Origin: a virus
Lineage: Duplodnaviria; Caudoviricetes
Virus record (IMG/VR): IMGVR_UViG_3300028048_000055
Coordinates: 101,062-165,061 of that record
DNA: 64,000 nucleotides
Strand: one strand, 5' to 3'
Position numbers and translations under genes: made by a program. Below are positions 27,311 to 48,936 of the stretch, in pieces; position 1 is the stretch's first letter; each line of letters starts with the position of its first letter. The notes below the pieces were generated by a model that saw only the letters and a list, made by a program, of their open reading frames with translations, was not told the DNA's origin and did not search any database.

Positions 27311-27419
27311 TATGAAGGACAGGTATATATCCCCATTATACTTGTGGATATTCACACTATCCACTAACTTCATATAAATATATTAGAAGGTGTGAACTTC
27401 TTATTTTTATGGGGTATTT
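27311..27419 (+). promoter_or_regulatory. structured leader (three-way junction, complementary loops) with late promoter 27373-27380
   Basis: Stems and loop complementarity read directly from the sequence; see findings. Confidence 0.6.
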
Positions 27420-28388
27420 ATGAAGACTAGGCAATGTCTTAAGTGTAACTGTATAATATCAGTTAGAAGTTTTTTAAAACATATATTAAATAAACATAAT
27501 CTTTCTGAAAAAGAATATTATGATTTATATCTTAAACAGCCTGATGAAGGTTTATGTAAAAACTGCGGTAAACAAACTAGATTTTATTCAATAACTAGAG
27601 GTTATTGTTCAACATGCTCATTAAATTGTGGTGCATCACTAGGGCAAAAGAAAAGATATGAAAAACCAGAAGAACATTTAAAAAGTTCAATTATTACTAA
27701 GAAACAAATGGCAAATTCACAAGCTAGGATAATTCTTAGTAAAAAAGCAAAAGAACGGTTTTCAGACCCAGCAGAACGTGAAAGAATTAGTAATGCAGTA
27801 AAAAATTCAGAAATATTTAAAAATAAAATACATTCTGAAGAATATTCTATAAATATGCATAATTTATTAATTGAGCGTTATTTGCATCCAGAAAATAGAT
27901 TAAAAATGAGTGAATCTTGTAAAAATTCACCAAAATTTAAAAATGGTGCAAGACAAACAAAAGAATTTCGTGAACGTCATAGTGAAATAATGCATGAACG
28001 GTTAAAAAATGGAAAACTTATGGTTAAATATGAGTATAATAATGAAACATTTATGTCATTGCCCGAATTTGCATTTTATATATGGCTTAAACAGCATAAG
28101 GTTGAATTTGAATATCAATGTGAACCATTATTTTATGAAAAGAATGGTGTGATTAAACGATATATACCAGATTTTAAAGTAAAAGGACGATATGTTGAAA
28201 TTAAGAGTCCATTTTTAATTAAAGATAATCATTTGTGGGATCCGTTTGAAAAAAGATTTAATATTGAAAAAGAACAATGCATGATTAAAAATAATGTATA
28301 TGTTATGACAGAAGATAAGTATAATATATTCGTTAATTGGTTTAAAAAACATTATGATAATGAATTTATTTTAAATCACAGAAAATAA
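27420..28388 (+). CDS. free-standing endonuclease: N-terminal zinc fingers, helical repeats, C-terminal PD-(D/E)xK domain
   Basis: CLKC..HILNKH, CKNCG..CSLNC; YIPDFKVKGRYVEIKS. Confidence 0.75.
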   Translation: MKTRQCLKCNCIISVRSFLKHILNKHNLSEKEYYDLYLKQPDEGLCKNCGKQTRFYSITRGYCSTCSLNCGASLGQKKRYEKPEEHLKSSIITKKQMANSQARIILSKKAKERFSDPAERERISNAVKNSEIFKNKIHSEEYSINMHNLLIERYLHPENRLKMSESCKNSPKFKNGARQTKEFRERHSEIMHERLKNGKLMVKYEYNNETFMSLPEFAFYIWLKQHKVEFEYQCEPLFYEKNGVIKRYIPDFKVKGRYVEIKSPFLIKDNHLWDPFEKRFNIEKEQCMIKNNVYVMTEDKYNIFVNWFKKHYDNEFILNHRK

Positions 28389-28409
28389 AATTCTGAATTT
28401 TTCTAACTT

Positions 28410-28435
28410 AGACCGTAGAAAATACGGTCTTTTTT
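28410..28435 (+). terminator. intrinsic terminator
   Basis: agaccgta-gaaaa-tacggtct followed by T-tract. Confidence 0.8.
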
Positions 28436-28471
28436 ATTATAAATATAATAAAACTAACGTTAGAGGAATTT

Positions 28472-29899
28472 ATGAACGAACAAAAACTATTTGAAATGGC
28501 TAAAGCTGCTCAAGAACGTATGCTTGACAGACTTCCGACAAATAAGAAATATGTATTCTTGCTTGGTCGATTCTTTGAACTTAAAGGTGATCATAATACA
28601 AAGAATGCATTGAAAAAGTATCTTGGTGATAGATTAACTGAAGAAGAATTCAACTGGGATAATATTGTATCTGTCGTTGCCGGTGGCGATGAAACTGATA
28701 TTACAGCTATTAATCATGGCGCTCATACAGATAAAATGGCTGAATTGTTCCATGCGAAGTTCGATACACTTTATAATAACATGAAGAATTCCTTGGCTCG
28801 TTCTAAGGATGATATCGATACTAACTATGTCGATAAGGTTCTTGATTTCTATTCTAAGGTCTATAACCACGATGATACTCCTGAAAATCTCTTTAATCAG
28901 CTTAATATGCAGCCTGTCATTGACTGGATTAAGGCTAATGAAGGTGAAGCTGCGGAACGTTTTGGACGTCGTTGGCCTAAGATTCAGAGACTCCTTGCTC
29001 AATGGCTTGATGATAACTATGAAGGTTCTATCAACCAGACTATTGCAGCATTCTGGGATTGGTGGCGCACAGTTCCTCGTGAAGACCGTGAAACTGCTAA
29101 ACCTCCTGTAGAATTAGCTCAGAAGCTTGCTAAGATTTTCTGCCGTGAAGATTCTCGAGAAATCCTTGGTAACTATCATAACTTTGTATTGAAGAAGACT
29201 CTCTTGACCTTGACTTCTGATGGTAATGTAGTTCCTAATGGTCTTAAGGCTGCTCTTGGTAATGCAGTTCGTAACGGTGCTGAATTTGGTCGTATGACTG
29301 ATTTCTGTGAAAACTTGGTTAATACTTGGTTTAATACCTTAAATCCAACTGAAGACCAGATTGAAGAAATGCGTAACCGTCCAGATGACGATAACGGCGA
29401 AATTAATATTAATAACTATGCTGATCGTATTGCAGAAGAAATACCTAATGATGCGGCAGACATGATTCTTGCAGCTGTTAATTATGAAGATAATAATCAT
29501 TTGCAAACTCTTCAAGATGCACTTAAAGAATTTGCTGATAATGATATGGTTGACATTAATATGGTTGGTCATGTCGATAAAAATATTGTAAGAGAAGCTT
29601 TTGCATATTATCGTCAACTTGGTAGAACAAAGAGAGTAGGCCGTACTTCAGTATTTAGTGAAGAAACATTAAACTCTATTCAAACATTCTATAATGAATT
29701 CAAGAACTTATTTAAGATTGGTTTAAAACTTCCTGCTATTAAATCTCTCTTAGCTGGTTATGCCGATGTTAGACTTGATGCAATAAATAGACATGATAAT
29801 GATTACTGGAATAATAGACAATTTGAAGACGTTCCTGAAGAATATGAACTTGAAGAAGCTCTCAGAGTTCTTCACAAGCACGGTTTGATGATTGCTTAA
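28472..29899 (+). CDS. late hypothetical protein (putative internal head protein)
   Basis: TATAAATA 28438-28445; SD GAGG; C-terminal LEEALRVLHKHGL motif. Confidence 0.65.
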   Translation: MNEQKLFEMAKAAQERMLDRLPTNKKYVFLLGRFFELKGDHNTKNALKKYLGDRLTEEEFNWDNIVSVVAGGDETDITAINHGAHTDKMAELFHAKFDTLYNNMKNSLARSKDDIDTNYVDKVLDFYSKVYNHDDTPENLFNQLNMQPVIDWIKANEGEAAERFGRRWPKIQRLLAQWLDDNYEGSINQTIAAFWDWWRTVPREDRETAKPPVELAQKLAKIFCREDSREILGNYHNFVLKKTLLTLTSDGNVVPNGLKAALGNAVRNGAEFGRMTDFCENLVNTWFNTLNPTEDQIEEMRNRPDDDNGEININNYADRIAEEIPNDAADMILAAVNYEDNNHLQTLQDALKEFADNDMVDINMVGHVDKNIVREAFAYYRQLGRTKRVGRTSVFSEETLNSIQTFYNEFKNLFKIGLKLPAIKSLLAGYADVRLDAINRHDNDYWNNRQFEDVPEEYELEEALRVLHKHGLMIA

Positions 29900-29904
29900 T
29901 AAAA

Positions 29905-29975
29905 TAAAAGAGGATTTTTAAAATCCTCTTTTTAATTATATAAAAAATAAAGGCGATTTTGAATCGCCTTATTTT
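29905..29975. terminator. two tandem hairpin terminators between convergent genes
   Basis: aaaagaggattt/aaatcctctttt and aaggcgatt/aatcgcctt. Confidence 0.7.
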
Positions 29976-29977
29976 TA

Positions 29978-31717
29978 TTAGATTTCTTCCCAGATTTCTA
30001 TGAAGCTACCACCTTCATTCGGTCTACGTTCATTGAAATCACCTGGCTTATAGTCATATACTATCGGATTATCCGGATCCTCAGGTTCATTCAACTTCTT
30101 CAAAGCTTCTTCCTGAGTAGGAGCTGTAACAACAACGTTATCAGTTATATTAGCTTGAACGTTACCATCTTCTCCTACTGGGTGATAGTATACTCTCCAT
30201 TGCTTTGCTCTAGGCATACGATGAATAGGTCCGTTAACTCTACGTGGCTCTCTATTTCTTACAGCCGGCTGAGCAGGAGCTTCTTCAGGTTCTTCATCTG
30301 CAGCAGGTTCATTAGCCGGAGCTTCTTCACGAGCTTGTTCTTCACCAGCGGCAGGAACATCAGCAAACAATTCCTGATACTGTGCCGGAAGCGGCCCAGG
30401 TTTTGTATTATCCATTAAACCATGATTTTGTTTAACTGGAACTTCTATTTCTGCTGGTGCTTGTGGATTAACATCAACAAATGTAAAGACATTTTCAAAC
30501 TTAGATTCAATCTGATTTGCTACCCATCTGGAAAGTTCGTCATTTAAATTGTTCGGATCGCAAATAAAAGTAATTTCAATATTGGCATTACCATTATCTT
30601 CAATAAATACTGGTTTAGATAACTTATTACCGGCAGCATCATATTCATCAATTTCATTAACTAATGAATCAAATGCATTTTTGATATCTTCAGTTTCTGC
30701 ACCGCCTTCAGTATCAATAATAACTTGAATTGTTCTTGTATTAATCTGAACATTTACTTCAGCAGGTGCCTGATGTGCAGGAGCTTCTTGTCTAGGAGCC
30801 GGTGCTTCTTCAGCAGGTTCTTCATGTCTTGGTGCGGCAGGAGCTGCATGAGCTGCAGGAGCATTACCAACACGGCCTCCATGTCTATTCGGGTTATCAC
30901 CACCTCTACCAGTTGGCTGCGGAGGAACTGCACCATCAATTTCACCAGTTTCAGGATCGACTTCAACTGCATCCCAACCATTTTCAGTGCGTCTAGCATT
31001 AAGGGTATTAATAATTCCCATAAGTTTTTGCTTACCGCGAGCAGGTGCATCAGGTATAAATGATGCAAAGCCATAAATAAACTTATCAATCTTGTCTTGT
31101 GTACGTAAAGCATTATTTGTTTTTGCGGAAGCATAACAGTTTTGGAATGCTTTAAGTCTTGCTAATGCTGCAGCATCCATTCCACGGAATTCATTTGCTT
31201 CATTAAGCATATAACCATGTCTACCGAGAACTTCTACCGCTTCTCTGATATCTTCATCAGCCGGGAATGAACCATCTTCTATATCATCATATACATCAGT
31301 TTCATCTTCTGCCGGAATACGGTCATATTCATCTGGATCTTCCATTCCATTAAGCTTACCTAGCTCATCATCTTCTGGGAAATCAGAATAATCTTCATTA
31401 TCCTCAGTTTCTTCATCATCACCGATGAAATCATTTTCATTATCGATGGTTTGAGATTCTTCGTAAATATCGTCTATAAGCTGTTCTACGGCTTGAGTCG
31501 GTGTAAAACCATCATTATAATATGAATCGATTATTTGTGCATACCATTCATCTTGTAGCATTTCATCTATAGACTGATAGTTCTCATCATCAGAATACTT
31601 TTCAGCCCACAAATCACTAAGTTTGGCAATAAAGTCATCATAAGAACCTATTGCTTGTTCTCTAAGCGCATACAATCCATGCTGCTTTATTATTGATTTA
31701 GCTTCATTAAGTGTCAT
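29978..31717 (-). CDS. acidic Pro/Ala/Glu-rich late protein (putative internal head protein)
   Basis: TATAAATA at 31741-31748 (-); two EAxxxLxxHG motifs. Confidence 0.7.
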   Translation of the reverse strand: MTLNEAKSIIKQHGLYALREQAIGSYDDFIAKLSDLWAEKYSDDENYQSIDEMLQDEWYAQIIDSYYNDGFTPTQAVEQLIDDIYEESQTIDNENDFIGDDEETEDNEDYSDFPEDDELGKLNGMEDPDEYDRIPAEDETDVYDDIEDGSFPADEDIREAVEVLGRHGYMLNEANEFRGMDAAALARLKAFQNCYASAKTNNALRTQDKIDKFIYGFASFIPDAPARGKQKLMGIINTLNARRTENGWDAVEVDPETGEIDGAVPPQPTGRGGDNPNRHGGRVGNAPAAHAAPAAPRHEEPAEEAPAPRQEAPAHQAPAEVNVQINTRTIQVIIDTEGGAETEDIKNAFDSLVNEIDEYDAAGNKLSKPVFIEDNGNANIEITFICDPNNLNDELSRWVANQIESKFENVFTFVDVNPQAPAEIEVPVKQNHGLMDNTKPGPLPAQYQELFADVPAAGEEQAREEAPANEPAADEEPEEAPAQPAVRNREPRRVNGPIHRMPRAKQWRVYYHPVGEDGNVQANITDNVVVTAPTQEEALKKLNEPEDPDNPIVYDYKPGDFNERRPNEGGSFIEIWEEI

Positions 31718-31760
31718 AAATCCTCGAAATTACTTTATATTATTTATAAGCAAAGATAAG

Positions 31761-31790
31761 AAAAATACCTTGTATTACAAGGTATTTTAT
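31761..31790 (-). terminator. intrinsic terminator
   Basis: aaaataccttgta/tacaaggtatttt. Confidence 0.7.
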
Positions 31791-31807
31791 ATAATTCTGA
31801 ATTTCTT

Positions 31808-32473
31808 TTACTTTAATTTATTAACCAAATCTCTGATATTTCCACCGTTTCTAAGGTAGTCAGCAACATTGGTAATACCAGCACGACGAGCTACATCAGT
31901 TGTGCGTTTTGGCTGGCCTTGACGACGTTTTAAGGGGTCTCTTTCACCAATGGCAGCACGATTTACACCTGCAGACAAATCTCTAGCTCTAGCATTGCTA
32001 ACTTCATACTTATCGTAATTAGCTTTTAACCAAGTAATAAGCTGATCCAGACCACGAGTAAAAGTATCTTTTGTCGTATAGAATGTATCTGCATGAAGAA
32101 TAATAGTCTTCTTTGTTCCATCATCTAATGTCTTAATAAAGACTTTTGCATTACTATTATCACAAACAGACAATGTGCCATCATTATTAATCTTAATTTC
32201 AAACTGATATGCGCCTTTACCACCCTTACGAGTCAAATGAATCTTATTTGCACTTCTAGAACCGGTAGGAGATGCTATATAAATGTCACCCATATCAGTT
32301 CTAATTCTATTACAAATCCAGTTTGTCATTGTCTGGTTATATGCTTCATCAGCCTTTTCATTAATAATAAAATCAATAAGACTATGTTTTTTAATTTTTT
32401 TATATCTTTGGCATTCTTTTTCACCCTGAAGGTCAAAATCTTCATTCATTAAAAATAAATCGTAGTCTGTCAT
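31808..32473 (-). CDS. hypothetical late protein
   Basis: Start revised to MTDYDLF (SD GAGGA); CATAAATA variant upstream. Confidence 0.6.
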   Translation of the reverse strand: MTDYDLFLMNEDFDLQGEKECQRYKKIKKHSLIDFIINEKADEAYNQTMTNWICNRIRTDMGDIYIASPTGSRSANKIHLTRKGGKGAYQFEIKINNDGTLSVCDNSNAKVFIKTLDDGTKKTIILHADTFYTTKDTFTRGLDQLITWLKANYDKYEVSNARARDLSAGVNRAAIGERDPLKRRQGQPKRTTDVARRAGITNVADYLRNGGNIRDLVNKLK

Positions 32474-32537
32474 AAAATCCTCATTTTTATATTTATGAAG
32501 TTTTAGAGTTATAAATAATACAAATATAGGAGTAATT

Positions 32538-34133
32538 ATGAATATTTTTGAACAAGCTGCTGCATTAATCATGGACGATTTTGTCAACGAATCTATGGCG
32601 TCTGACATGTATAAAAACAGCATAAAAAAGAAATTAGAACAGTTAAAAACTGCATGTGGTTATGAACCTAAACTTGATCCAGAAGTTTTGAACTCTGACA
32701 ATGAATTCCAATTAAAATCATATGCTAACTTTTTAACTGATATTCAAAGCCTTTATAAAATATATGTTGAAGGCGGAAATAAGTTTAATGTTGCAAAAGT
32801 AAAGAAATTCTTGCTTGAAATCAATAATAGCAGAACAAAAAATGAACGCCCAGGTGAAGTTGCTTATTTTAATATGGCATTTGATTTATTGTCTACATCA
32901 AGAAAGACAGGTTCTGTAAGTATTATTGAAATCATTAAACCTACTGAAGATTTATTTGCATCTTTCTTTAAGCCAGAAGCTGCTGAAATTTGGGAATCTG
33001 CAGCAGAACAAGCAATAGAAAATCTTATTGCAGTAAAAGCTACTGGAACTAAAACATATAAAGAACGTCAAAGAAGGGATGTTGCACAGGCATTTAAGGA
33101 AAACTGTGAACGCCGTAATGCTGAATTAAAAGAGGCAACAAATGATACTTATCAGATTGTTAAAGGTAATGCTGGTTCTGCAAGACCTATGCTTATTGAT
33201 AAAAAGAAAAAGTTACAGCTTACTATTACTTCGGCAAAGCAACAGGGTGGTGATGAATATGGTAGCTTATATAAATATTCATTAGCTGATGTTTATGGCA
33301 ATGGTTCTATTGAAGAACTTGTCGAAGCAATTAAATATTTCTTTAAAGAAGAATATGGTTATTTCTATGATGATCCTACTGAATTAGATGATTCTGTTAG
33401 ATTTACCCACAAGGGTGATGCTATTGTCGCAGTAGCACCAGAATTATTTAATGAAAACGGTTATGTTGGTGGTCTTTCTGGAACCAAGCAAATTAGCAAT
33501 GATATTATATTACACTTTGTTAATTTAAGCGAAGGTAAGACTGAAAACGGCGGTCGTTATGGTCATTCTAAAGTTGAGAATGATGAAGGTGAAAATCCGT
33601 ATTATAATGAATATAACCCTGCTGATGGCGAATTGCTTATTGTTTCTGAAGATGATAAGATGAATAAATCATATTTGGATGAAAATGCCAAGCATGTCGT
33701 ATTTGAAATCGATGCTGCTGGAACATCTGAAAAAGAAAGTGCTTCTAACTATAATTTCTTGGGTGTATTTAGTAAAGTTACTGAACAAGAAAGAGAAAAT
33801 GGCGGTTATATGGTAAACTATGTTCTCGAATCTGATACTTTAGAAGTTTCTGGTCACTCTGCTGGTGAAGTTACAACCGAATCCAAGAAAGTTCGAAATG
33901 CATTAAAGCTTCTTAAGGAAAATGGTTATCTCGTTGAATTCCGTGACGCAAGTCAGGATTTAAATGACGATCCTTATGATGATTCTGAAGCATGGAATAA
34001 CGGTAATCCGACATACCAAGACTCTGAAGGTGTTGAAGACCGTAATGAGAAGCAAACAGTTTCTAGAAAAATGGACAATCTCATTAAGAAAATCGATGAA
34101 GTATGTAACAGATTTGAAGACTATGACTATTAA
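32538..34133 (+). CDS. late hypothetical protein (putative internal head protein)
   Basis: TATAAATA 32510-32517; SD AGGAG; VRNALKLLKENGYLVE motif. Confidence 0.7.
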   Translation: MNIFEQAAALIMDDFVNESMASDMYKNSIKKKLEQLKTACGYEPKLDPEVLNSDNEFQLKSYANFLTDIQSLYKIYVEGGNKFNVAKVKKFLLEINNSRTKNERPGEVAYFNMAFDLLSTSRKTGSVSIIEIIKPTEDLFASFFKPEAAEIWESAAEQAIENLIAVKATGTKTYKERQRRDVAQAFKENCERRNAELKEATNDTYQIVKGNAGSARPMLIDKKKKLQLTITSAKQQGGDEYGSLYKYSLADVYGNGSIEELVEAIKYFFKEEYGYFYDDPTELDDSVRFTHKGDAIVAVAPELFNENGYVGGLSGTKQISNDIILHFVNLSEGKTENGGRYGHSKVENDEGENPYYNEYNPADGELLIVSEDDKMNKSYLDENAKHVVFEIDAAGTSEKESASNYNFLGVFSKVTEQERENGGYMVNYVLESDTLEVSGHSAGEVTTESKKVRNALKLLKENGYLVEFRDASQDLNDDPYDDSEAWNNGNPTYQDSEGVEDRNEKQTVSRKMDNLIKKIDEVCNRFEDYDY

Positions 34134-34160
34134 TATAAAATTACTCCTATTATTTAAAGG

Positions 34161-34189
34161 TTGACGAAAGTCAACCTTTTTATTATATT
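34161..34189 (+). promoter_or_regulatory. early promoter TTGACG-N17-TATATT embedded in a terminator hairpin
   Basis: aaaggttgac-gaaa-gtcaacctttt. Confidence 0.7.
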
Positions 34190-34196
34190 TGTAATA

Positions 34197-35033
34197 ATGA
34201 TTTACGAAAATATGCAATGTGTTAAACCGCCAAGGTATGTTTTAATTACAGGCTTCATGGGGAGTGGTAAATCTACTGTTTCTGAACTTTTACGTGCAAA
34301 AACTTTTAAAGTTATCGATTCTGACAGTTTTGCAAAGAACCTTTATAAAACTGACGATACTTTAAAGAAGTTAGTTATCTCAAAGTTTGGAATTGAAGCT
34401 TCGTCTAATTATGAAGGTCCGGATAAACCGTTTGACCTTGATTTTGAATTTGCAAAGAAAGAATTTTTTAAAGCAGAAAATGATGAAAAACGTAGAGACC
34501 TAGAATCCTATATTTGTGGTTATCTTTCTGTCAATGTGCAATTTAATAGAGAACTTTGGGGCTATCCAGTCGTATTTATCGAAGCCGCATTAACTGAAGC
34601 GATTCCGACTTTAGTTGAATTACTTAAGATTAAGACTGTCATCGATGTATCTATTGATGACCATTTGAGAGCTAGTCGATTAGCTCAACGAGGAATTGAT
34701 ACAAAAACTCTTAATGAACGTATGCGTCTTCAAAAGTATGTCGATTTCGACGAAACTGTTACTGTATATCCGATTACAAATAATGGAACTATTGTTGATT
34801 TATGGCATCAAGTAGATGATATGCTTAAAAATGGTTTCATGAATTCGCAGGAAAAGTATCAACATTTTAAGACATATCTTGATAATGCACCTGAATATTG
34901 TAGAACTAACACTTGGTGTTATTTGTATTATAATAACAAGGGTTGTTCGAATTGTCCATTCCCTTGTGACAATAGAAATACAGAATTTGATGAAATGAAA
35001 GAAAAATATTTAAATAGGAAATATAATGGCTAG
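34197..35033 (+). CDS. coaE: dephospho-CoA kinase-like P-loop kinase with C-terminal Cys cluster
   Basis: ITGFMGSGKSTVS, VIDSD, RLAQRG, RMRLQ, ITNNG; start revised. Confidence 0.75.
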   Translation: MIYENMQCVKPPRYVLITGFMGSGKSTVSELLRAKTFKVIDSDSFAKNLYKTDDTLKKLVISKFGIEASSNYEGPDKPFDLDFEFAKKEFFKAENDEKRRDLESYICGYLSVNVQFNRELWGYPVVFIEAALTEAIPTLVELLKIKTVIDVSIDDHLRASRLAQRGIDTKTLNERMRLQKYVDFDETVTVYPITNNGTIVDLWHQVDDMLKNGFMNSQEKYQHFKTYLDNAPEYCRTNTWCYLYYNNKGCSNCPFPCDNRNTEFDEMKEKYLNRKYNG

Positions 35034-36375
35034 AAAAGAAACTACAAAAGATGGACTTATTAACGGTTATATGCATGCACTCGATTATGGTAAGACAGAG
35101 CGAAGAATGGTTGAACTTGCTGAAGCACAAGCACTTCAAGCAGGATTTGTAAAATATTCCGCTGATAAGCCGCTTAATCCTGGTGCAAAGTATTATTTTA
35201 TTAACCGTGGTAAAAACTTTGCAGCATTTGTTATCGGTAAAGAAAATCGTTCTGCACAATTACTTGGTGCACATATTGACTCACCGAGAATTGACGTAAA
35301 GCAACAGCCTCTTTATGAAAAGGATAAGGTTGCTTATTTTGATACTCAGTATTATGGCGGAATTAAGAAGTATCAGTGGACGACTATTCCTCTTGCAATG
35401 TATGGCGTAGTTTATCGAGCAGATGGAACTTATTATAATATCGCTATTGGTGATAATCCGAATGATCCAATTTTCTGTATTACTGATTTGCTTCCACATC
35501 TCGGTCGTTCTGATATGTCTAAAAAGACAGCAGAAGAATATATCAAGGGTGAAAATCTTGACATTATTGTCGGAACTACTGCAATCGAATGTTCTGATGA
35601 AGAAAAGGAAAAGATTAAGGAACCTGTAAAGGCGTTTATCCTTGATTATATTAAGGCAAAGTGGGGAATGGAAGAAGAAGATTTCTGTTCTGCCGAAATT
35701 GAAATTGTTCCGGCTGGTCAGGCAAGATATTGTGGTCTTGACCGTTCTTTGATTGCTGGCTATGGTCAGGATGATAGAGTTTGTGCTTATACTTCTCTTC
35801 GTGCGGTTCTTGACCTTCAGGATATTCCTGAACACACTGCGGGTGTAGTTCTCGTTGATAAGGAAGAAATTGGTTCTTGTTGTGCTACCGGTGCAAAGTC
35901 TCGTTGGTTTGAAGATGTTCTTCGTGCTATTCTCAACTTTGATCGTTGTAATGAACTTCAATTTGCAACTTGCCTCTATAATACACGCATGTTGTCTTCT
36001 GATGTAACTGCAGCATTTGATCCGCTTTATGCAGATGCATATGACAAGAAGTCTTCTGCTAAGCTTGGTAAGGGTATTATGTTCTCCAAGTATAATGGTG
36101 GTCGTGGTAAGTCTGGCGGTGCTGATGCAAATCCGGAATTTATCGCATATGTTCGTGGTATCATGAAGGAAAATAACTGTAACTATCAGTTTGACTCTAT
36201 GGGTAAGGTTGATGTCGGCGGTGGCGGAACAATTGCTTCTATGATTTGTAGCTTAAACATTAATGTGCTTGATGCTGGTGTTCCTATCCTTAACATGCAT
36301 TCTCCGATGGAACTTGCTCATGTTGATGATATCTATTCTGCATATAAGGCATATTCTGCATTTATCAGGGCATAA
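35026..36375 (+). CDS. M18 family aminopeptidase
   Basis: AHIDSPR, YYGGIKKYQW, GQDDRVC, DKEEIGS, SSDV, MHSPME. Confidence 0.9.
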   Translation: MARKETTKDGLINGYMHALDYGKTERRMVELAEAQALQAGFVKYSADKPLNPGAKYYFINRGKNFAAFVIGKENRSAQLLGAHIDSPRIDVKQQPLYEKDKVAYFDTQYYGGIKKYQWTTIPLAMYGVVYRADGTYYNIAIGDNPNDPIFCITDLLPHLGRSDMSKKTAEEYIKGENLDIIVGTTAIECSDEEKEKIKEPVKAFILDYIKAKWGMEEEDFCSAEIEIVPAGQARYCGLDRSLIAGYGQDDRVCAYTSLRAVLDLQDIPEHTAGVVLVDKEEIGSCCATGAKSRWFEDVLRAILNFDRCNELQFATCLYNTRMLSSDVTAAFDPLYADAYDKKSSAKLGKGIMFSKYNGGRGKSGGADANPEFIAYVRGIMKENNCNYQFDSMGKVDVGGGGTIASMICSLNINVLDAGVPILNMHSPMELAHVDDIYSAYKAYSAFIRA

Positions 36376-36377
36376 AA

Positions 36378-40009: not shown

Positions 40010-40036
40010 TAACAGTGAAAATTAAATGGTTCAGTA

Positions 40037-40213: not shown

Positions 40214-40237
40214 AAAATTTAAAAAGGAAAAATAAAA

Positions 40238-40828: not shown

Positions 40829-40829
40829 T

Positions 40830-41153: not shown

Positions 41154-41365
41154 ATAAAGACACAGATTATTTTAACCATATAATTAATTACTGGGCAGAT
41201 AAAGAAGCAACCAGAAAATTATATGGTGAAGATTGTGACCGTTGGGAAGATTACCGTCCATGGAAACACAATGATTACAAATCTGAAATAACCAACAAGA
41301 TAGCAAAAAGCTATTATAAAAACAAAAATTTAACAAAAACAAAACAAACAAACGAGGATAAAAAT

Positions 41366-42007
41366 ATGTTTGACTTCAATATGGGTAATATGTTTAACGG
41401 TATGTTCGGCAAGGTTGAGAAGGGTAAGTGTGCCTTCGCAATGGGTGGCGGCATCGCAGTCAAGACCAGCAATGGTTATAAGACTTATAACGTCAAGAAG
41501 CAGCGTTTGACCAACGTTACTAACTTCTGTTTCGACGCGTCTGATTTCTTCTTCGTTCTCCCGACCGCAAAGGTTGCAGTTGGTGACGTCATTCTTGTCG
41601 GTGGTAAGCCGAAGTGCGTTATTGAAGTTCTGAAGAAGTCCATCAAGGTTATCGACTATGAAAATAGCGAAATCCGTGAAATTGTTCCGGAACGCCATGT
41701 CTTCATGGGTGCGACAGTCTTCTATGGTAAGATTACTAGCATGTTCGGTGCTGGCATCGGTAAGGGCAAGGGCATTATGTCCAAGATTATGCAGCTCATG
41801 ATGATGAAGAGCTTGATGGGCGGTAATGGCAATAATGACGGTGGTAACTTGATGCAGATGATGATGATGCAGCAGTTCCTCGGCGGTGGCGCAGCTAATA
41901 CCGAAGATATGTTTGAAAATATGTTTGACATTCAGATCGATGAGGATGAAGACGCCGCAAAGACTGATGCAGACGATAATGATGACGAAGACACGGAAGA
42001 AAACTAA
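41366..42007 (+). CDS. conserved phage protein with Met/Gly-rich C-terminus, upstream of vWA gene
   Basis: SD GAGGA before MFDFNMGNMF; the track ORF extends in frame to 41147. Confidence 0.65.
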   Translation: MFDFNMGNMFNGMFGKVEKGKCAFAMGGGIAVKTSNGYKTYNVKKQRLTNVTNFCFDASDFFFVLPTAKVAVGDVILVGGKPKCVIEVLKKSIKVIDYENSEIREIVPERHVFMGATVFYGKITSMFGAGIGKGKGIMSKIMQLMMMKSLMGGNGNNDGGNLMQMMMMQQFLGGGAANTEDMFENMFDIQIDEDEDAAKTDADDNDDEDTEEN

Positions 42008-42019
42008 GGAGGTTAACCA

Positions 42020-42901
42020 ATGGGTGGCGGAAGCTTTGATTATTCCAGCTATAAAACTTATTCCACTAGTGTAGGTAAGTGTGTTGACACTCGTGGCTAT
42101 GTAACTAAGGGTCAGACTTTTACTGCACGTTCTCTTGACAAGGAACTTGATCCAAGAAATGTAATTCGTGAATGTTGTAATTCTAAGGAACATCCGAATA
42201 CTCTCCCTGTTATTCTTGCACTTGACGTAACTGGTTCTATGGGCTCTGCATGTATGCGTACTGCTGAAGCTCTTGGCCCGATTGTTATGAACTTGCTCGA
42301 AAAGTATAAGGATCGTGATATCGAATTCCTTATCATGGGTATCGGTGATGTCGAATGCGATAATTATCCTATTCAGGCATCTCAGTTCGAATCTGACGTT
42401 CGTATTTCCAAGGCAATCGACAAGATTTACATGGAACATGGCGGTGGCGGTAATATGTATGAATCTTACTCTGCTGCATGGTATTTCGGACTTAACCAGA
42501 CTAAGCTCGACTGTTATGACAAGCAAGGTCGTAAGGGTGTTATCATTACCATGGGTGATGAACCGCTCAATCCATATCTTGAACGTAATGGTTTGAATGA
42601 AGCTACTGGTAGATCTGCTCAGGGTAATGTTGAAACTAAGGCACTTTATGAACAAGCAAAGGATAAGTTCGATATTTATCATATTGCAGTTGATGATGAT
42701 GCTACAGCCTATAGAAGCTATGAATCGCTGATTAAGAAGACTTTTGGTGAGCTTCTCGGTGATAACCTTAAGGTTGCAACAATTAACTCCCTCCCTGTTA
42801 TGATTGAGAATTGTATTAAGCAAACTCTTGAACATAACGGTGGCGGTAATGACAAGCCGAATACGCAAGTCATTAATGAAGCAGGTGAAATTACTTGGTA
42901 A
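42020..42901 (+). CDS. von Willebrand factor A (vWA) domain protein
   Basis: MGGGSF start; LALDVTGSM MIDAS; GGGGN..ESY; ITMGDE. Confidence 0.85.
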   Translation: MGGGSFDYSSYKTYSTSVGKCVDTRGYVTKGQTFTARSLDKELDPRNVIRECCNSKEHPNTLPVILALDVTGSMGSACMRTAEALGPIVMNLLEKYKDRDIEFLIMGIGDVECDNYPIQASQFESDVRISKAIDKIYMEHGGGGNMYESYSAAWYFGLNQTKLDCYDKQGRKGVIITMGDEPLNPYLERNGLNEATGRSAQGNVETKALYEQAKDKFDIYHIAVDDDATAYRSYESLIKKTFGELLGDNLKVATINSLPVMIENCIKQTLEHNGGGNDKPNTQVINEAGEITW

Positions 42902-42912
42902 TTCAAAAGGGG

Positions 42913-42941
42913 TTGAAAAACCCCTTATTTTTTTCTATATT
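42913..42941 (+). promoter_or_regulatory. promoter TTGAAA-N17-TATATT embedded in a terminator hairpin
   Basis: aaggggtt-gaaa-aacccctt. Confidence 0.65.
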
Positions 42942-42983
42942 TGTTTGGAATGATAACGATAACCGATAAGAAAAGGAGGATTT

Positions 42984-44142
42984 ATGAGCATAGTTAACGC
43001 ACGAATTATCGTTGGCGCTAACTATGGTTGAATAAACCATAGGTGATGAAGGTAAAGGCACAGCGGTAGCTTTTTATACAAAAAATTCTATCGGTAAAGT
43101 TTTAAATGTATTGACAAATGGTGGTGCACAGAGAGGTCATTCTGTTATCTCTGATGTAGGTGATTTTACATTCAAGCATTTTGGATCTGGAACTTGTTAT
43201 AATGCAGACAGTTATTATTGTCAGTATTTTATTCTTAATCCGATGCAGTTTGTTAAAGAATATAGACAGTTAAGAGATAAGATTCCACTCTTTAACAATA
43301 TCAAGTTTTATAGACATGTAAACTGTAAATGGTCTACTCCCTTTGATCAAATGTTTAATCTTGCAATCGAAGCTAGTAGAGGTGCAGAAAGACATGGTTC
43401 TTGTGGAATGGGTATTTGGGAAACTGTATTAAGATATAATAAAACTATTACTTATACTTTAAGCGATTTCATGAATCTTATAAGAGAAGATAAAGTAAAG
43501 TATCTTCAAAATGTGAAGAATTATTTTAATATCCGTATGAAAGAACTTAATGTAAAACTTCCTAAGGAACTTATTGAACCTTGGAATAGTGATTTTCTTA
43601 TTGAACATTTTATTCAAGACTGTAAGTTCATTGCTTCTACTGTAATACCTGTTTCTAATATTACTGATATCAGTAATAACTATCAGGAAATTATTTTCGA
43701 AAATGGTCAGGGATTACTTTTAACATCCAGTATATTTGATGACCATACGACACCGAGTAATACTGGTTGTCATGATGCAATGGATATTATTATAAATGAA
43801 CTTCATATTCCTTGTGAAAATGTTACAGTTCATTATATTACGAGACCGTATCTTACTAGACATGGTAATGGTTCTCTTATTGGTGAAACTGATAAGAATC
43901 ATATTGCTGGTTCCGTTCCTGAAGACAGGACAAATCATTACAATGAAACTCAAGGTCGATTTAGATATGCTGGATTAGATATTCATGATTTACTTAATAG
44001 GGTTAAGAATGATTATCAAGCTATGCATGCTAGTGGATTAAAAATTGAAGTTACACATTGTGATGAAATGGATAGAGTAAATGAATTCGAAAAAGTGTTT
44101 GGCCAATCTGTCATCCATACATTCGAATCTCCTAAAATTTAA
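42984..44142 (+). CDS. purA: adenylosuccinate synthetase-like protein with a 16-nt coding gap (43029-43044)
   Basis: SD AAGGAGG; IIVGANYG|DEGKG, NGGAQRGH, HGSCGMG, FENGQG, YLTRHGNG; gap splits the P-loop. Confidence 0.75.
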
Positions 44143-44172
44143 AAAGGATTGGTTTTATCCAATCCTTTTTTA
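44142..44172. terminator. bidirectional terminator
   Basis: aaaaaggattgg/ccaatccttttt. Confidence 0.75.
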
Positions 44173-44188
44173 TTTTCATATTAATAAA

Positions 44189-45040
44189 TTACCAATCATA
44201 TTCACGAGTATCTTCTGGTTCAGGAATTCGTTTCTGACCATAAGACATTTCAACAACTTCAAAATATTCAGCGTTTTCTATACCTTCTGGATTTTTATTA
44301 TAAGTATCAGATATATCTTTTTTCTTTCCATTAACAACGGCAAATATTAAAGTTTCGCCATCATCCCATGGACATCCACAGTCATCTATATCAGTTGCAA
44401 TGTCAGAAGAAATATTTTCGCAGTCATATACTTCGTCATCTGTTGGAAGATGATCAAATATAAAAGCAATAGAGCATTCATATTTAATATATTCTCCATC
44501 GTCAGTAATATCATAAGTAACTTCGACCTTTTTATCGGGATAATTTGTTTTTAAATATTTTTCAACCTCGGCAACATAATCTGCACAATCGCTTTCTTCA
44601 CTACTAGTATCATAGCCATCTTCTGCATAGTAATCCGGGTCATAGAATTCTGGACGTGTTGACGGGTCATAGAAATCACCCTTTCTTTCTACGATATAGC
44701 CTTGTTTTTTAAGGTATTGTTTTGCTTCATTAAGATTCATACCTACTCCTCTATTAAATTCTGTATTTTCGTTGATTTCTCGGAAGAACTTTTCGATATC
44801 TTGCTTAGTATAAAGTTTCTTGTATTTTCTTGTTGATAACATTGTTACCATCAACATATCAAAATAATTCTGAACTTTTGCAATACGAACCTTTTCTGGT
44901 GAATACAAGATCATATCTGTTTTAAGGACATATTTTTTTCGTAATGCAGTCTGTCTGAATATATGAAGCAAATCTGGTTTTCTTTCACCAAATGTAACTA
45001 CTCCATTTTTAAACTGTGGGTTTGAGAAATCGTAAGTCAT
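44189..45040 (-). CDS. late acidic protein; internal start at 44740 (MNLNEAKQYLKKQGYIVE)
   Basis: TATAAATA 45045-45052 (-); internal SD GAGGAG before ATG 44740. Confidence 0.6.
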   Translation of the reverse strand: MTYDFSNPQFKNGVVTFGERKPDLLHIFRQTALRKKYVLKTDMILYSPEKVRIAKVQNYFDMLMVTMLSTRKYKKLYTKQDIEKFFREINENTEFNRGVGMNLNEAKQYLKKQGYIVERKGDFYDPSTRPEFYDPDYYAEDGYDTSSEESDCADYVAEVEKYLKTNYPDKKVEVTYDITDDGEYIKYECSIAFIFDHLPTDDEVYDCENISSDIATDIDDCGCPWDDGETLIFAVVNGKKKDISDTYNKNPEGIENAEYFEVVEMSYGQKRIPEPEDTREYDW

Positions 45041-45061
45041 ATATTATTTATATTAAAACCA

Positions 45062-45090
45062 TTTACAAATACATTTCATTTTACTATATT
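45062..45090 (+). promoter_or_regulatory. early promoter TTTACA-N17-TATATT
   Basis: Consensus match. Confidence 0.7.
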
Positions 45091-45119
45091 ATAATCAAAT
45101 TTAAAAAGGATTATAAATT

Positions 45120-45521
45120 ATGATTTCTAAAGAAGATCTTGAAAAATTCTGTGATATTTCTGAAAAAATCGAACAAGAATTGAGACGTATTGTCCCTATC
45201 CTTGAAGATGTTTACGGCAAAAACGCTCTTAAGCTTTCAGAAAAGAAAGAAGTTCGTTTTGTCGATATTTCTATAAATTTAAAAGGCTATATTGATTGCA
45301 GGATATATAGTAATTATATATCAGATAATCTTAATATCCCTTATCGAATTGAACTTAAGTATTTAACTATGCCAGATGATAAATTTGCTGCATACATGAA
45401 AAAAGAAAAGGAATCACTTGATAAGGAACGTGCTGAAACAGCAAAAAAAGAAGCTGAAGAACGTGCATTGTATGTAAAACTTCGTGAAAAGTATGGTGAT
45501 TTGGAAAATTTTCAATTTTAA
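45120..45521 (+). CDS. hypothetical protein
   Basis: SD AAGGA. Confidence 0.6.
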   Translation: MISKEDLEKFCDISEKIEQELRRIVPILEDVYGKNALKLSEKKEVRFVDISINLKGYIDCRIYSNYISDNLNIPYRIELKYLTMPDDKFAAYMKKEKESLDKERAETAKKEAEERALYVKLREKYGDLENFQF

Positions 45522-45554
45522 AATTTAAAAGGATATAAAATACAATTTTCATTC

Positions 45555-45675
45555 TATAAATAAAATATATAGAGTGAAGACTATATAAAGACATATAAGA
45601 GTTTTTATAAAACCCGTATGGTTTCGTTCTTCACATTAGATTCCATATGGGTTTTTCTTTTTGGAGTGAAGACCA
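45555..45675 (+). promoter_or_regulatory. late promoter plus paired-hairpin leader RNA with complementary loops
   Basis: See findings. Confidence 0.65.
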
Positions 45676-46464
45676 ATGCAATATTACATTTACAAAATTA
45701 CAAATAAGCTTAATGGTAAAATTTATATAGGTCAACATAAAGTTCCTTTAATTAAAGAAAACTTTAGAAGATATATGGGTAAAGGTATTGCTATTCAAGA
45801 AGCAATTAAAAAATATGGAAAAGAAAATTTTGATAAAGAAATTATAGAATATATTGACGATGATGAAAAACATGAATATGTTTCTGAACGTGAAAAATAT
45901 TGGATAGCATATTATAACTGTATGACACCAAATGGTTATAATATTAGTCCAGGCGGCGAGGGCGGATGCACAAGCGAAAGTGGTAAAAAAGGAGCAGAAA
46001 CAAGAAAACGTAATGGAACAAATAAACGAACACCAGAACAGTGCATAAAAATATCTAATGCAGTAAAAGGTAAACCAAAATCAGAATTACATAAACAACA
46101 TTTATCTGAACATCATAGATTAAGAACATTACATAAAGTTCAATTCAAATCTGACGGTCATATCGAGGAAACATTCGATTCTGTCAAAACATTGGCAATT
46201 AAATATAATATAAGAACTGAAATGATATTACGTAGAGCATCAGAAGCTGATAAATTTTGTAATGGTATAAAAATAATAGATATAATATTACCAGAAGTAG
46301 TTAAACGCCATAAGATGGTTAAACAAGGTTTATTTTTAGATCCAGTAAAGCAAGATATTGTTCCATATTATGTTTTAAGAAATAGAAAATGTGGTAATGC
46401 TAAAAATAATGAAATATATAGAAATTTAGATTTATTTAAATGTTTTATTAAGTATAATGATTAA
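45676..46464 (+). CDS. GIY-YIG (Seg-like) homing endonuclease with NUMOD3-like repeats
   Basis: YIYKITNKLNGKIYIGQ, REKYWI, GYNISPGG, KSELHKQHLSE. Confidence 0.85.
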   Translation: MQYYIYKITNKLNGKIYIGQHKVPLIKENFRRYMGKGIAIQEAIKKYGKENFDKEIIEYIDDDEKHEYVSEREKYWIAYYNCMTPNGYNISPGGEGGCTSESGKKGAETRKRNGTNKRTPEQCIKISNAVKGKPKSELHKQHLSEHHRLRTLHKVQFKSDGHIEETFDSVKTLAIKYNIRTEMILRRASEADKFCNGIKIIDIILPEVVKRHKMVKQGLFLDPVKQDIVPYYVLRNRKCGNAKNNEIYRNLDLFKCFIKYND

Positions 46465-46474
46465 TATAAAGGGG

Positions 46475-46503
46475 TTTACAAAACTCCTTTTATTTTTTAT
46501 ATT
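46475..46503 (+). promoter_or_regulatory. promoter TTTACA-N17-TATATT within a hairpin
   Basis: aaaggggttt/aaactccttt. Confidence 0.65.
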
Positions 46504-46530
46504 TAATATAGTTTTTAAAAGGATATTAAA

Positions 46531-47805
46531 ATGGAACTTTCTCAAAAAGAAATTAATGAAATTAAAAATTATAAACCGCTTGATGAAGATAAGTATATTA
46601 TCAATTATCTCTCAGATCTGGACATTTATAAAATTTCAATGACTCAGTGCTTGCTTCATAAGCGACCGAATGAATGGGCTAAGTGGAAGTGGAAGCTTCG
46701 CTCTAAAGATATTCATCTTGGATATCTTGTTGATGCGGTAAATCGTGAAGTTGATCATCTTTGTACGCTTCGTTGGCAACCTTTTGAACTTGATGCTCTT
46801 TCCAAGATTTATTATATTAAGCCTGATTATGTCGATTGGCTTGAAGATTTCCGTCTTAAGAGAAAGTATATCAAGATTACTCGCCGTGGTGACGATCTTG
46901 AAATTGAAGCAGAAGGTCCGCAGCTCAAGGTCACATGGTTTGAAATTTATGTGATGGAAATTATTCAGGAACTTTATCTTCGTCAGTTTGAATTTGATTT
47001 TGAAAAGGCAAAGGCAAATCTTGCAGAAGCAGTTGATAAGTTTAATGCTGCAATTGATTCTGGCTTGAAGTTCGGTTTTGCTGATTTTGGTGCTCGCCGT
47101 AGACATTCTTTTGCATGGCAGGATTATGCAGTTGGTTACATGGCTAAGAACTGTAAGTGCTTTGTTGGTACCTCTAACCTTTATTTCGCCATTAAATACG
47201 GTATAAAGGCAATTGGAACGTTTGCACATGAAATGTATGCTTTGTTCCAGGGACTTGATGATGTACCTATTCGTCAGTCTCAGAAGGCAGTATTCGACGC
47301 ATGGACGCAGGAATATCGAGGCGATCTTGGTATTGCATTGTCTGATAACTTTGGATTTATTCCGTTCCTTCGCGACTTTGATAAGTTCTATGCAAAGCTG
47401 TTCGATGGTTGTAGACACGATTCCGGTGATCCGATTGTTTGGGGTGAAATGTTAATTGCACATTATAAGGCACTTGGCATCGACCCGACTACTAAGACTG
47501 GTTGTTGGTCTGATTCTCTCGATGTTGATAAGGCAATTAAGATTGCACAGCATTTCAATGGTCGTATTAAGGTCAGCTTCGGTATCGGTACTTATTTCAT
47601 GGCAAATCTTGTAACTCAGACTGCTGGTATTAAGCCGCTTTCCATGGTTATGAAAGTTGTCAAGGTTAATGGCAAGGACACGGTGAAACTCAGTGATTGT
47701 CCTGAGAAAAACATGTGCGAATCTCCTACTTATATAGACTATGTTAAGCAGGTATTCGATTATATTCCATTGGATGAATGGAAGGGCGGTCTTACCGTAA
47801 TTTAA
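46531..47805 (+). CDS. pncB: nicotinate phosphoribosyltransferase
   Basis: DLDIYK, DFGARRRHS, GTSN, GTFAHE, RHDSGDP, SDSL, FGIGT, KLSD. Confidence 0.92.
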   Translation: MELSQKEINEIKNYKPLDEDKYIINYLSDLDIYKISMTQCLLHKRPNEWAKWKWKLRSKDIHLGYLVDAVNREVDHLCTLRWQPFELDALSKIYYIKPDYVDWLEDFRLKRKYIKITRRGDDLEIEAEGPQLKVTWFEIYVMEIIQELYLRQFEFDFEKAKANLAEAVDKFNAAIDSGLKFGFADFGARRRHSFAWQDYAVGYMAKNCKCFVGTSNLYFAIKYGIKAIGTFAHEMYALFQGLDDVPIRQSQKAVFDAWTQEYRGDLGIALSDNFGFIPFLRDFDKFYAKLFDGCRHDSGDPIVWGEMLIAHYKALGIDPTTKTGCWSDSLDVDKAIKIAQHFNGRIKVSFGIGTYFMANLVTQTAGIKPLSMVMKVVKVNGKDTVKLSDCPEKNMCESPTYIDYVKQVFDYIPLDEWKGGLTVI

Positions 47806-47830
47806 ATAAATTAATATTTACAGAATTAAT

Positions 47831-47971
47831 ATGAAAAAGTTGATTAAAATTATTTGCGCAGTTCTCGGTATTTCTCTTGCGAGTGGGTTAGTCTATAGAG
47901 AACGAGAAACAATTATGGATCTACGAAAGAGACTCGTAGAGATGAGGCATTTCACAGTTAATAAGAAGTAA
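47831..47971 (+). CDS. small single-TM protein
   Basis: 46-aa ORF MKKLIKIICAVLGISLASGLVY... Confidence 0.4.
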   Translation: MKKLIKIICAVLGISLASGLVYRERETIMDLRKRLVEMRHFTVNKK

Positions 47972-48044
47972 ATATCATTTTACATTTCTACTGTGAAATG
48001 TTTTCTATATTTGTACTATAAAGTTTAAAATAAAAGGAAAATCT

Positions 48045-48791
48045 ATGAAAGACTTAACTCAAAATGTGATTAATTGGACCAAGGACTTTTTTAAGGCAGT
48101 AGGCAAGACTGATGCAGTTCTTGGTATTTCTGGCGGTAAAGATAGTTCAGTAGTGGCTGCAATTTGTGTTGCTGCTCTTGGTAAGGAACATGTCCATGGA
48201 ATTTTGCTTCCGTGCGGAATTCAGAAGGATATTTCTGATTCCTATAAACTTGTAGATCATCTTGGTATCGATTATGATGTTCAAGATATTGAAACTCTTG
48301 TAAAGGAATCTCTGGCTCTGGTTCCTGGTGCAGATAAATCTTATGATGCAAAGACCAATGTTCCAGCTCGTATTCGAATGAATCAAATTATGGTAGCAGC
48401 ACAAACAAATAACTGGTTAATGGCTAATACCGGAAATCGCAGCGAAAATATAATTTCATGGATGACGCTATTTGGTGACCATGCGGGTAGTTTCGCGCCG
48501 CTTGATATGTTGACTACCGAAGAAGTTATTGAAATCGGCGATGACCTTGGATTACCTTATGAACTTACGCATAAAGTTCCTATTGATGGGCTTCAACCTC
48601 TTTCTGATGAAGAAAAATTTGGTTTTAGCTATCATGAAATTAATGAACTTATTAGAAAAGGAATTCGCGGCGAACATTATGATAAAATTATGAAAATGTT
48701 TAACGCTGGTAAGTTTAAACTTGAAATGTTAAAATTTGCACATTTTGATCCGAAGCTTCCGGATTATTTCAGAGATAATTTTAATATTTAA
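48045..48791 (+). CDS. nadE: NH3-dependent NAD+ synthetase
   Basis: LGISGGKDS, NVPARIRM, TGNRSE, TLFGD, DEEKFGFSY. Confidence 0.92.
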   Translation: MKDLTQNVINWTKDFFKAVGKTDAVLGISGGKDSSVVAAICVAALGKEHVHGILLPCGIQKDISDSYKLVDHLGIDYDVQDIETLVKESLALVPGADKSYDAKTNVPARIRMNQIMVAAQTNNWLMANTGNRSENIISWMTLFGDHAGSFAPLDMLTTEEVIEIGDDLGLPYELTHKVPIDGLQPLSDEEKFGFSYHEINELIRKGIRGEHYDKIMKMFNAGKFKLEMLKFAHFDPKLPDYFRDNFNI

Positions 48792-48813
48792 ACAAAATTT
48801 AAAAGAATAAAAA

Positions 48814-48936
48814 TATAAATATATTATAAAAGAATAATATGTGGAAGTTTTATTCTTGTTTAAATAAATTTTTGGAACGGTTAAAATACGAAACTTCCAC
48901 AATAGCGTGTTTTAATCGTTCTTTTTTATTAATATT
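48814..48936 (+). promoter_or_regulatory. late promoter plus paired-hairpin leader RNA with complementary loops
   Basis: See findings. Confidence 0.65.

Follow-up and report, generated by a model that had tools for sequence, protein, structure and literature searches.

Two designs of kissing-loop leader upstream of nuclease genes in an uncultured phage and their putative role in translational control

Background

Homing endonucleases need to be expressed sparsely and at the proper time, failing which they harm the phage that carries them. In the described cases of I-TevI, I-TevII, I-TevIII, segB and Aeh1 mobE, a structure that masks the ribosome-binding site is bypassed by an internal late or middle promoter (PMC2988022). 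The present analysis concerns three RNA leaders, referred to as elements A, B and C, that precede three nuclease genes in a stretch of 64,000 nucleotides (hereafter the window) comprising bases 101062-165061 of the 165-kb IMG/VR virus record IMGVR_UViG_3300028048_000055 (Caudoviricetes; 32% G+C; 40% complete according to CheckV). The leaders represent two designs, namely a widespread family with no entry in Rfam 15 (A) and a rarer decoy design (B and C). An earlier reading of the same DNA from the sequence alone had proposed a single element consisting of a late promoter and two hairpins with complementary loops before each free-standing endonuclease gene. As written, this proposal left out a third partner, the ribosome-binding region, which gives the pairings their function and which separate notes on A and B had seen.

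Two other groups of described RNAs provide points of comparison. ColE1 RNA I/RNA II and R1 CopA/CopT are kissing-loop antisense systems that act in trans and control replication, and the trp leader (1:2/2:3/3:4) and hok (fbi/tac/ucb) are relays through mutually exclusive pairings.

Coordinates are given in the window unless prefixed by G000, which denotes positions in the whole 165-kb record; L-numbers denote relative loci or lineages. Relatives occur on contigs of up to about 420 kb. The three genes are:

27420-28388, + strand: gene A, nuclease-like protein with Zn-ribbon, NUMOD3-like repeats and a putative PD-(D/E)xK domain (DUF7487-related)
45676-46464, + strand: gene B, GIY-YIG (SegE-like) homing endonuclease
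48937-50400, + strand: gene C, GIY-YIG homing endonuclease with NUMOD1/NUMOD3

The A-type leader family

Element A consists of three hairpins (HP0, HP1 and HP2) arranged around a three-way junction, a short sequence box and the Shine-Dalgarno (SD) region of gene A, the HP0 loop lying about 75 nt from the SD:

27311-27374, + strand: three-way junction; helix P1 pairs 27311-17 with 27368-74; junction strands AAGGACAG (27315-22) and CTAACTT (27364-70)
27323-27341, + strand: HP0, stem GTATA/TATAC, anti-SD CCCCAT in the loop (27331-36)
27344-27364, + strand: HP1, stem GTGGATA/TATCCAC, loop TTCACAC (27351-57)
27373-27380, + strand: putative internal promoter, the TATAAATA box, located between the junction and HP2
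27385-27401, + strand: HP2, stem AGAAG/CTTCT, loop GTGTGAA (27390-96), the exact complement of the HP1 loop
27409-27414, + strand: SD region of gene A, ATGGGG, the complement of the HP0 loop (duplex -9.4 kcal/mol)

The hairpins, loops and coordinates reported earlier for A, B and C were all confirmed by a check of the sequence. A genome-wide scan of 10288 neighbouring hairpin pairs yielded 53 pairs with at least 7 complementary loop nucleotides versus 43 +/- 7 after loop shuffling, so that a 7-nt match alone, as in A and B, is not significant and raw complementarity was dropped as evidence; only the match of element C (10-11 nt) is rare by its length. An 11-nt loop match at G000:48153-48240 was rejected as an inverted repeat within a coding region. 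The significance of the kissing pairings thus comes from covariation in relatives, which was sought in the homologues and found in every family examined.

Four diverged lineages retain the entire A leader with nearly every paired base, and all the stems, changed. In the five lineages identified by protein homology, the loop 1/loop 2 pairs are UUCACAC/GUGUGAA, UUUGCAC/GUGCAAA, CUGCAC/GUGCAG and UUGCAG/CUGCAA, and the corresponding loop 0/SD pairs are CCCCAU/AUGGGG, CCCCUAU/AUAGGGG, ACCCCU/AGGGGU and CCUCGUA/UACGAGG. Fixed among the relatives are only the TATAAATA box and the junction strands AAGGACAG, UUG and CUAACUU. The junction strands, used as a DNA pattern, retrieved 28 loci from IMG/VR and 11 true loci on contigs of metagenome-assembled genomes (MAGs), at least two of the MAG-contig copies being from goat gut. 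Loop 1 and loop 2 share at least 6 exact complementary nucleotides in 22 of 23 distinct lineages (permuted mean 2.2), as do loop 0 and the SD region at the same length (22/23; permuted mean 3.3), and none of 20000 partner permutations reached 22 lineages for either contact. The HP0 stem also covaries, together with the loop 0:SD pairing, and an RNAalifold consensus of HP0 and HP1 displays compensatory changes at 12 of 16 pairs.

As MAFFT alone misaligned the variable hairpins, a covariance model (R1) was built for the family and pairs were counted on its alignment of 39 distinct copies. The model gives the order AAGGACAG - HP0 - UUG - HP1 - CUAACUU - UAUAAAUA - HP2 - SD. Standard pairs occupy 92.3% of the cells, versus 60.0% after shuffling and 32-47% after sliding, and the covariation score is 0.769, versus 0.191 and 0.099-0.129, respectively. 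The HP1 helix is paired in 98% of the cases; the five alignable columns of the kissing helix are 78% paired, a percentage lowered by misplacement of the shorter HP1 of the window's own lineage in this alignment, with double changes in four of the five. The junction nucleotides are invariant in all 39 copies, while all helices and loops vary. With G-U pairs counted, stems are longer on the sense strand in 18 A-type lineages versus 1, which identifies the + strand RNA as the structured molecule. At the level of sequence comparison, the existence of the structures, the covariation of their pairings and their formation by sense-strand RNA can be taken as established, in agreement with the earlier assignment of the loop-loop pairings to RNA-level contacts of the + strand, and compensatory changes in the relatives bear this out. 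The structure of element A itself is considered very probable.

A search with R1 recovered element A (80.7 bits, E 1e-11) and 46 other copies. Elements B and C were not matched at E up to 0.001, and hence are of a different design; the idea of one conserved element common to the three leaders has to be given up. The arrangement also differs: the box of B and C precedes both hairpins, and that of A lies between the paired hairpins. The motif TTC(C)ACAnTA, put forward as a family feature of the loops, does not hold for the A-type leaders, the loops of which take at least 19 different sequences; common descent may account for it in B and C only.

The suggestion that the leaders are new was upheld within the sources searched: Rfam 15 gave no gathering hit in the window and none at E up to 5 that overlaps any of the three leaders, so that ribozymes and riboswitches were rejected as identities for want of a match, and full-text searches of the literature turned up only the T4 hairpin paradigm and no such kissing-loop leaders. 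The claimed link to unrelated nuclease families is real for the A-type leaders: the genes 3' of them encode mostly DUF7487/PD-(D/E)xK proteins, with HNH+NUMOD3 (L284, L291) and LEM-3-like GIY-YIG (L322) proteins as the others.

In some of the genes behind A-type leaders, the DUF7487 nuclease-like domain is fused to an N6/N4 DNA methyltransferase domain (L274:8372-10156, L293:665-2434, L319:6094-7836). An orphan A-type junction with box at L296:893-1013, devoid of HP2, SD and downstream open reading frame, has been left behind after gene loss. Some 15 kb ahead of the window start, on the minus strand at about G000:85860-85931, the record has a second A-type junction and TATAAATA box with degraded HP2 and SD, adjoining a 58-aa remnant of an A-family nuclease; this is a decayed cassette. 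Contigs of up to 266 kb carrying A leaders are binned in MAGs of unrelated bacteria and archaea, namely Methanobrevibacter (L318, L324), Bacilli (L314, L319) and Succinivibrionaceae (L322, L327), and are probably mis-binned contigs of large phages.

The decoy design of elements B and C

In elements B and C, the loop of HP2 (gamma) is complementary both to the region of the translation start (delta) and to the loop of HP1, which copies delta and is referred to as the decoy (beta). A further strand, alpha, can pair with the decoy of B. The parts of element B are:

45546-45558, + strand: alpha strand, overlapping the box and pairing with the decoy in the read-through RNA (predicted minimum-free-energy structure, RNAfold)
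45555-45562, + strand: TATAAATA box, upstream of both hairpins
45566-45587, + strand: HP1 (decoy), TATATAG-AGTGAAGA-CTATATA, the loop copying that of the SD region
45609-45662, + strand: HP2, 13-bp stem (45609-55) closing a 21-nt loop that holds the anti-SD TCTTCAC (45628-34), followed by a U-run
45661-45676, + strand: translation start hairpin TTGG-AGTGAAGA-CCAA, with the SD GGAG (45663-66) inside

The third copy of the word in B, GGAGTGAAGAC, lies over the SD within this small start hairpin. Relatives of B with 84-55% protein identity keep the layout with four different words:

Window B: beta AGUGAAGA; gamma UCUUCAC; delta GGAGUGAAGAC
L187 / L089 group: beta AGUGAAGG; gamma CCUUCACU; delta GGAGUGAAGGC (GGU in L089)
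L190: beta GUGACGGUC; gamma GACCGUCAC; delta an imperfect SD copy
L192: beta UUUGGAAGGC; gamma GCCUUCCAAA; delta AUGGAAGGC (start codon placed 30 nt downstream of the called one)

Written as DNA, the HP2 loop words are TCTTCAC, CCTTCACT, GACCGTCAC and GCCTTCCAAA, each of which complements its own decoy, and in three of the four lineages the HP2 loop also pairs with 7-8 nt of the SD region. A change of GGCC to GGTC in the start region of L089 leaves the pair intact as G-U, and in L190 the pair between loops 1 and 2 is perfect over 9 nt although the third copy has drifted. The HP1 stem has been replaced as a whole in relatives (TATATAG/CTATATA by TTTGG/CCAAA), the loop being kept and covarying. 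The box is retained in L187, L089, L090, L188 and L192 and reads TATAAACT in L190. The leader is conserved together with the homing endonuclease gene (HEG), which has 77% amino acid identity versus 36-57% for the flanking genes. A profile of the C-terminal domain of gene B brought up the two IMG/VR relatives already known and, apart from these, only distant ones without a leader. We consider the structure of element B likely.

The predicted duplex energies of B are -12.4 kcal/mol for alpha:beta and -9.7 kcal/mol for both beta:gamma and gamma:SD; with this order, the state of the first pair would decide the masking of the start region. Alpha-equivalent strands are present in L089 and L190. In folding predictions, the decoy is unpaired to 1-19% in RNA reaching upstream of the box and to 24-92% in RNA beginning 5 nt after it, and in eight of nine B and C leaders beta is predicted to be paired in the long RNA and free in the box-started one. 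The spacings of the B and C leaders are near-constant, with 11-19 nt from box to beta and 51-58 nt from beta to gamma.

Element C has the following parts:

48814-48821, + strand: TATAAATA box, upstream of both hairpins
48830-48858, + strand: HP1, stem AAGAATAA/TTATTCTT, loop with TGTGGAAGTTT (48840-50)
48875-48927, + strand: HP2, 16-bp stem (48875-921, two G-U pairs), 15-nt loop with AAACTTCCACA (48891-901), then T6
48944-48958, + strand: third copy of the word, TGTGGAATTT (48949-58), within codons 5-8; can fold as AAATT-TGTGG-AATTT

A metagenome scan for close relatives of gene C found nothing above 44% identity. The only relatives of the leader are L009-L011. In these, an A-to-U change in loop 1 (GGAAG to GGTAG) is matched by a U-to-A change in loop 2 (CTTCC to CTACC), and the HP2 stem carries compensatory changes; the start-region copy follows the change only in L009. 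The masking contact of C comprises 7-8 nt at +13 to +22 and is partly conserved. The duplex energies are -14.8 kcal/mol for beta:gamma and -10.4 kcal/mol for gamma with the translation initiation region. The structure of element C is regarded as moderately probable.

The layout with three copies (decoy, anti and start region) is confined to the B and C families among 189 unique GIY-YIG leaders from IMG/VR and JGI, three further layout matches being at chance level, and a structural scan of all the fetched loci gave no additional one. The pattern TATAAATA N{55,85} CTTC N{0,1} ACWWWAR is specific within the window; its matches in IMG/VR number more than 119, and among the 119 listed all failed the hairpin-plus-complement filter.

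The TATAAATA box

Of the 53 genomic copies of the TATAAATA box, 33 are intergenic, versus 25% for AT-only 8-mers. The box is present in all the A-type relatives, including those found through protein homology or the covariance model and hence not ascertained by the box. In the A-type leaders HP2 begins 0-7 nt after it, which by T4 geometry is where a late transcript would begin. Motif identity, intergenic enrichment and conservation together suggest that the box is a late promoter, and its presumed start site is used as such below. By position, the box falls within the presumed inhibitory structure in all copies of A, and in B only through alpha.

The box also occurs, exactly 4 nt before an ATG and with no Shine-Dalgarno sequence, at no fewer than 11 genes; such sites include window 22684-22702, 19343 and 45045 (minus strand) and G000:43510, 45392, 46211, 72126, 74166, 78576 and 80467, and a single palindromic box is shared by a divergent gene pair. 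Provided that the box acts as a T4-type promoter, the mRNAs of these genes would be leaderless or nearly so. The nuclease-like genes at G000:43522, 45404, 46223 and 52567 are devoid of a kissing-loop leader and have their ATG 4 nt after a TATAAATA-like box; the statement that all free-standing endonuclease genes carry the leader thus holds within the window and fails for these four genes elsewhere in the record. The DUF7487 nuclease gene at G000:8558-9606, frameshifted after about 35 codons, is preceded by two TATAAATA boxes and one hairpin, which has no kissing partner.

Proposed mechanism and alternative explanations

It appears fairly probable that the leaders control translation of the selfish nuclease genes according to the site at which the transcript starts. 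In element A, read-through RNA from the upstream NMNAT-Nudix gene would carry the three-way junction, with the HP0 loop paired to the SD and the HP1 loop kissing HP2 (6-7 bp) just upstream of it, so that the two contacts together would fasten the junction to the start region like a clamp; a transcript begun at the TATAAATA box would be free of the clamp and hence translatable. In B and C, beta would be held in read-through RNA by a stretch that precedes the box (in B, alpha), leaving gamma to mask delta, while in box-started RNA, which would have no alpha, beta would capture gamma and delta would be open. Our confidence in this switch logic is moderate, and the assignment of the ON and OFF states is likewise a proposal.

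Several observations weigh against it. The transcript ends assumed for the leaders are putative, as is late promoter activity, which the sequence-only reading had named outright: searches for T4 gp55 were empty in the 40%-complete 165-kb record and in four related fragments, Gp23 (PF07068) remained below the cut-off, and any T4-likeness of the phage is conjectural. As the box of B and C lies upstream of both hairpins, a bypass there requires the alpha strand, which is clear in three B lineages and weak in L192; C has a different alternative pairing in its place, with no sequence variation there. In L190 the copy at the start region is imperfect, and in L010 and L011 it is mismatched; in these lineages the masking contact is less strictly conserved than that between the loops. 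An 11-bp helix between two closed loops, as in C, is topologically strained. Leaders are missing altogether from the gene B lineage L311 and from some gene A lineages (L099, L104); some of the leaderless lineages of both genes are coupled to the upstream gene instead, the leader having been lost. Finally, HP2 and the U-run of B and C could serve in transcription termination instead.

This last point leads to the alternative that survives best, namely that B and C are attenuators or small RNAs, with HP2 and the U-run terminating transcription, an RNA of about 100 nt comprising HP1 and HP2 as the main product, and the nuclease made only from read-through; the loop-loop contact would then tune termination or RNA stability, and the short RNA could act in trans on the start region. 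A long G+C-containing HP2 stem with U5-6 behind it, as seen in B, C, L089, L009 and L192, the near-constant spacings and the complementarity of the HP2 loop to the start region are all in keeping with it. Intrinsic terminators resemble HP2 of B and C in having a stem (here 13-16 bp) directly followed by a U-run; they differ in the loop, which here is an atypical 15-21 nt with a conserved covarying pairing word, and a terminator consensus scan, which accepts loops of 3-8 nt, did not call either hairpin. L190 lacks a real U-run, and both the decoy copying the SD region and the alpha:beta pairing are left unexplained. We therefore rate this alternative as unlikely, and a part of the U-run in termination as conjectural.

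For the A-type leaders, the junction (AAGGAC, UUG, CUAACUU) might instead be a sensor of a phage or host protein or of a small molecule that sets the clamp, the box being incidental. The invariance of the junction nucleotides amid varying helices and loops and the position of element A in an NAD-salvage gene cluster would suit such a role. However, Rfam yields no riboswitch match, including the NAD+ classes, at E up to 5, the element moves with nuclease genes through many contexts, and the invariant strands may merely fix helix geometry or overlap upstream promoter elements; a sensor is accordingly held to be quite improbable.

A DNA-level explanation of B and C, in which the three copies of an 8-10 bp word (two direct, one inverted) would be operator sites, possibly for the endonuclease as autorepressor, finds a precedent in I-TevI, which binds an operator overlapping its own late promoter (PMC2988022), and three copies changing together would fit sites that co-evolve with a protein. 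Against this, the words sit exactly in the loops of hairpins with compensating stems, the G-U pairs occur on the sense strand only, the L190 loops match perfectly despite the drift of the third copy, the complementary loops of element A involve no repeated word, and the loops differ in every lineage though the DNA-binding domains of the nucleases are related. Operators are hence deemed very improbable. Ordinary terminators and promoter-proximal hairpins with fortuitously complementary loops, as the chance-level frequency of 7-nt matches in this AT-rich genome might suggest, are contradicted by the covariation and have a negligible probability.

Returning to control by transcript start site, bolder extensions may be entertained only tentatively. 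The B/C leader could be a new kind of three-hairpin relay, in which a decoy of the ribosome-binding site competes for a terminator-like loop and which might release a trans-repressing RNA of about 100 nt; separately, the A-type junction could bind a dedicated phage factor. If so, the B/C relay would couple promoter choice, transcription termination and translation in one element, and the factor at the A-type junction would set the time at which the nucleases of a large group of gut and rumen phages are expressed.

The nuclease genes and their context

The earlier gene calls were retained: the genes starting at 45676 and 48937 encode GIY-YIG proteins, and that at 27420 has the E...PD...EIK motif with weak matches to T7 endonuclease I and TnsA-N. 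Gene A itself has no Pfam match. Its family is characterised by N-terminal CxxC zinc ribbons, NUMOD3-like repeats and the invariant motif (E216, P250-D251 and E260-I261-K262 in 11 homologues); the family profile matches T7 endonuclease I weakly (E 0.019), and homologues have weak matches to Phage_endo_I, TnsA-N and DUF7487. The motif and these weak hits suggest a PD-(D/E)xK nuclease-like protein.

Homologues of gene A (91-52% identity) always lie 3' of the NMNAT-Nudix gene. In the window, the NAD-salvage genes for NMNAT-Nudix (26239-27306), NAPRTase (46531-47805) and NAD synthase (48045-48791) are flanked by all three nuclease genes, and B-like nucleases of relatives occur on either side of the NAPRTase gene; the conserved NAD-salvage genes are probably the homing targets of the three nucleases. 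Between the NAPRTase and NAD synthase genes, 3' of a small open reading frame (47831-47968), there is a further hairpin at 47945-48002 with an 11-bp stem CATTTCACAGT/ACTGTGAAATG, a 36-nt loop and a U-run, the stem of which holds the word TTCACA found also in loop 1 of element A.

Comparison with known systems

The relay of B has counterparts in the trp attenuator and hok, with which it shares a set of mutually exclusive pairings among four segments, here with the energy order alpha:beta > beta:gamma = gamma:delta. It differs in that the choice would be made by the transcription start site, and not by a translating ribosome or 3' processing, and in that two of the pairings of B are loop contacts and not nested helices. 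The decoy design would be a natural decoy of the ribosome-binding site, which is rare in bacterial gene control.

With the ColE1 and R1 kissing loops, the leaders share fully complementary loops of 6-7 nt that are free to vary provided the partner follows. In contrast to the two transcripts that meet in trans in those systems, both hairpins here belong to a single leader and meet in cis, and what they control is probably translation. The A-type leaders offer a natural set of cis kissing complexes, are a candidate new Rfam family and may serve to mark mobile nuclease cassettes in large phages that are uncultured.

The closest likeness is to the control of HEGs in T-even phages (PMC2988022), where selfish nuclease genes likewise have their SD paired in read-through RNA and a TATAAATA-type box (a putative promoter here) is so placed that a transcript of the gene itself begins past the 5' half of the inhibitory structure. 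Whereas a single local hairpin holds the SD in its stem in the T-even phages, the partner of the SD would here be a loop, either a distant one (A) or that of a long hairpin separate from the SD (B, C); A adds a separate loop-loop complex of 6-7 bp on a conserved three-way junction, and B and C add a decoy hairpin and a relay of alternative pairings. In place of the T4 solution of a simple hairpin over the ribosome-binding site, these phages would thus possess a portable and more elaborate RNA module, the specificity of which lies in freely evolving loop-loop and loop-SD contacts and which has become attached to at least three unrelated nuclease families.

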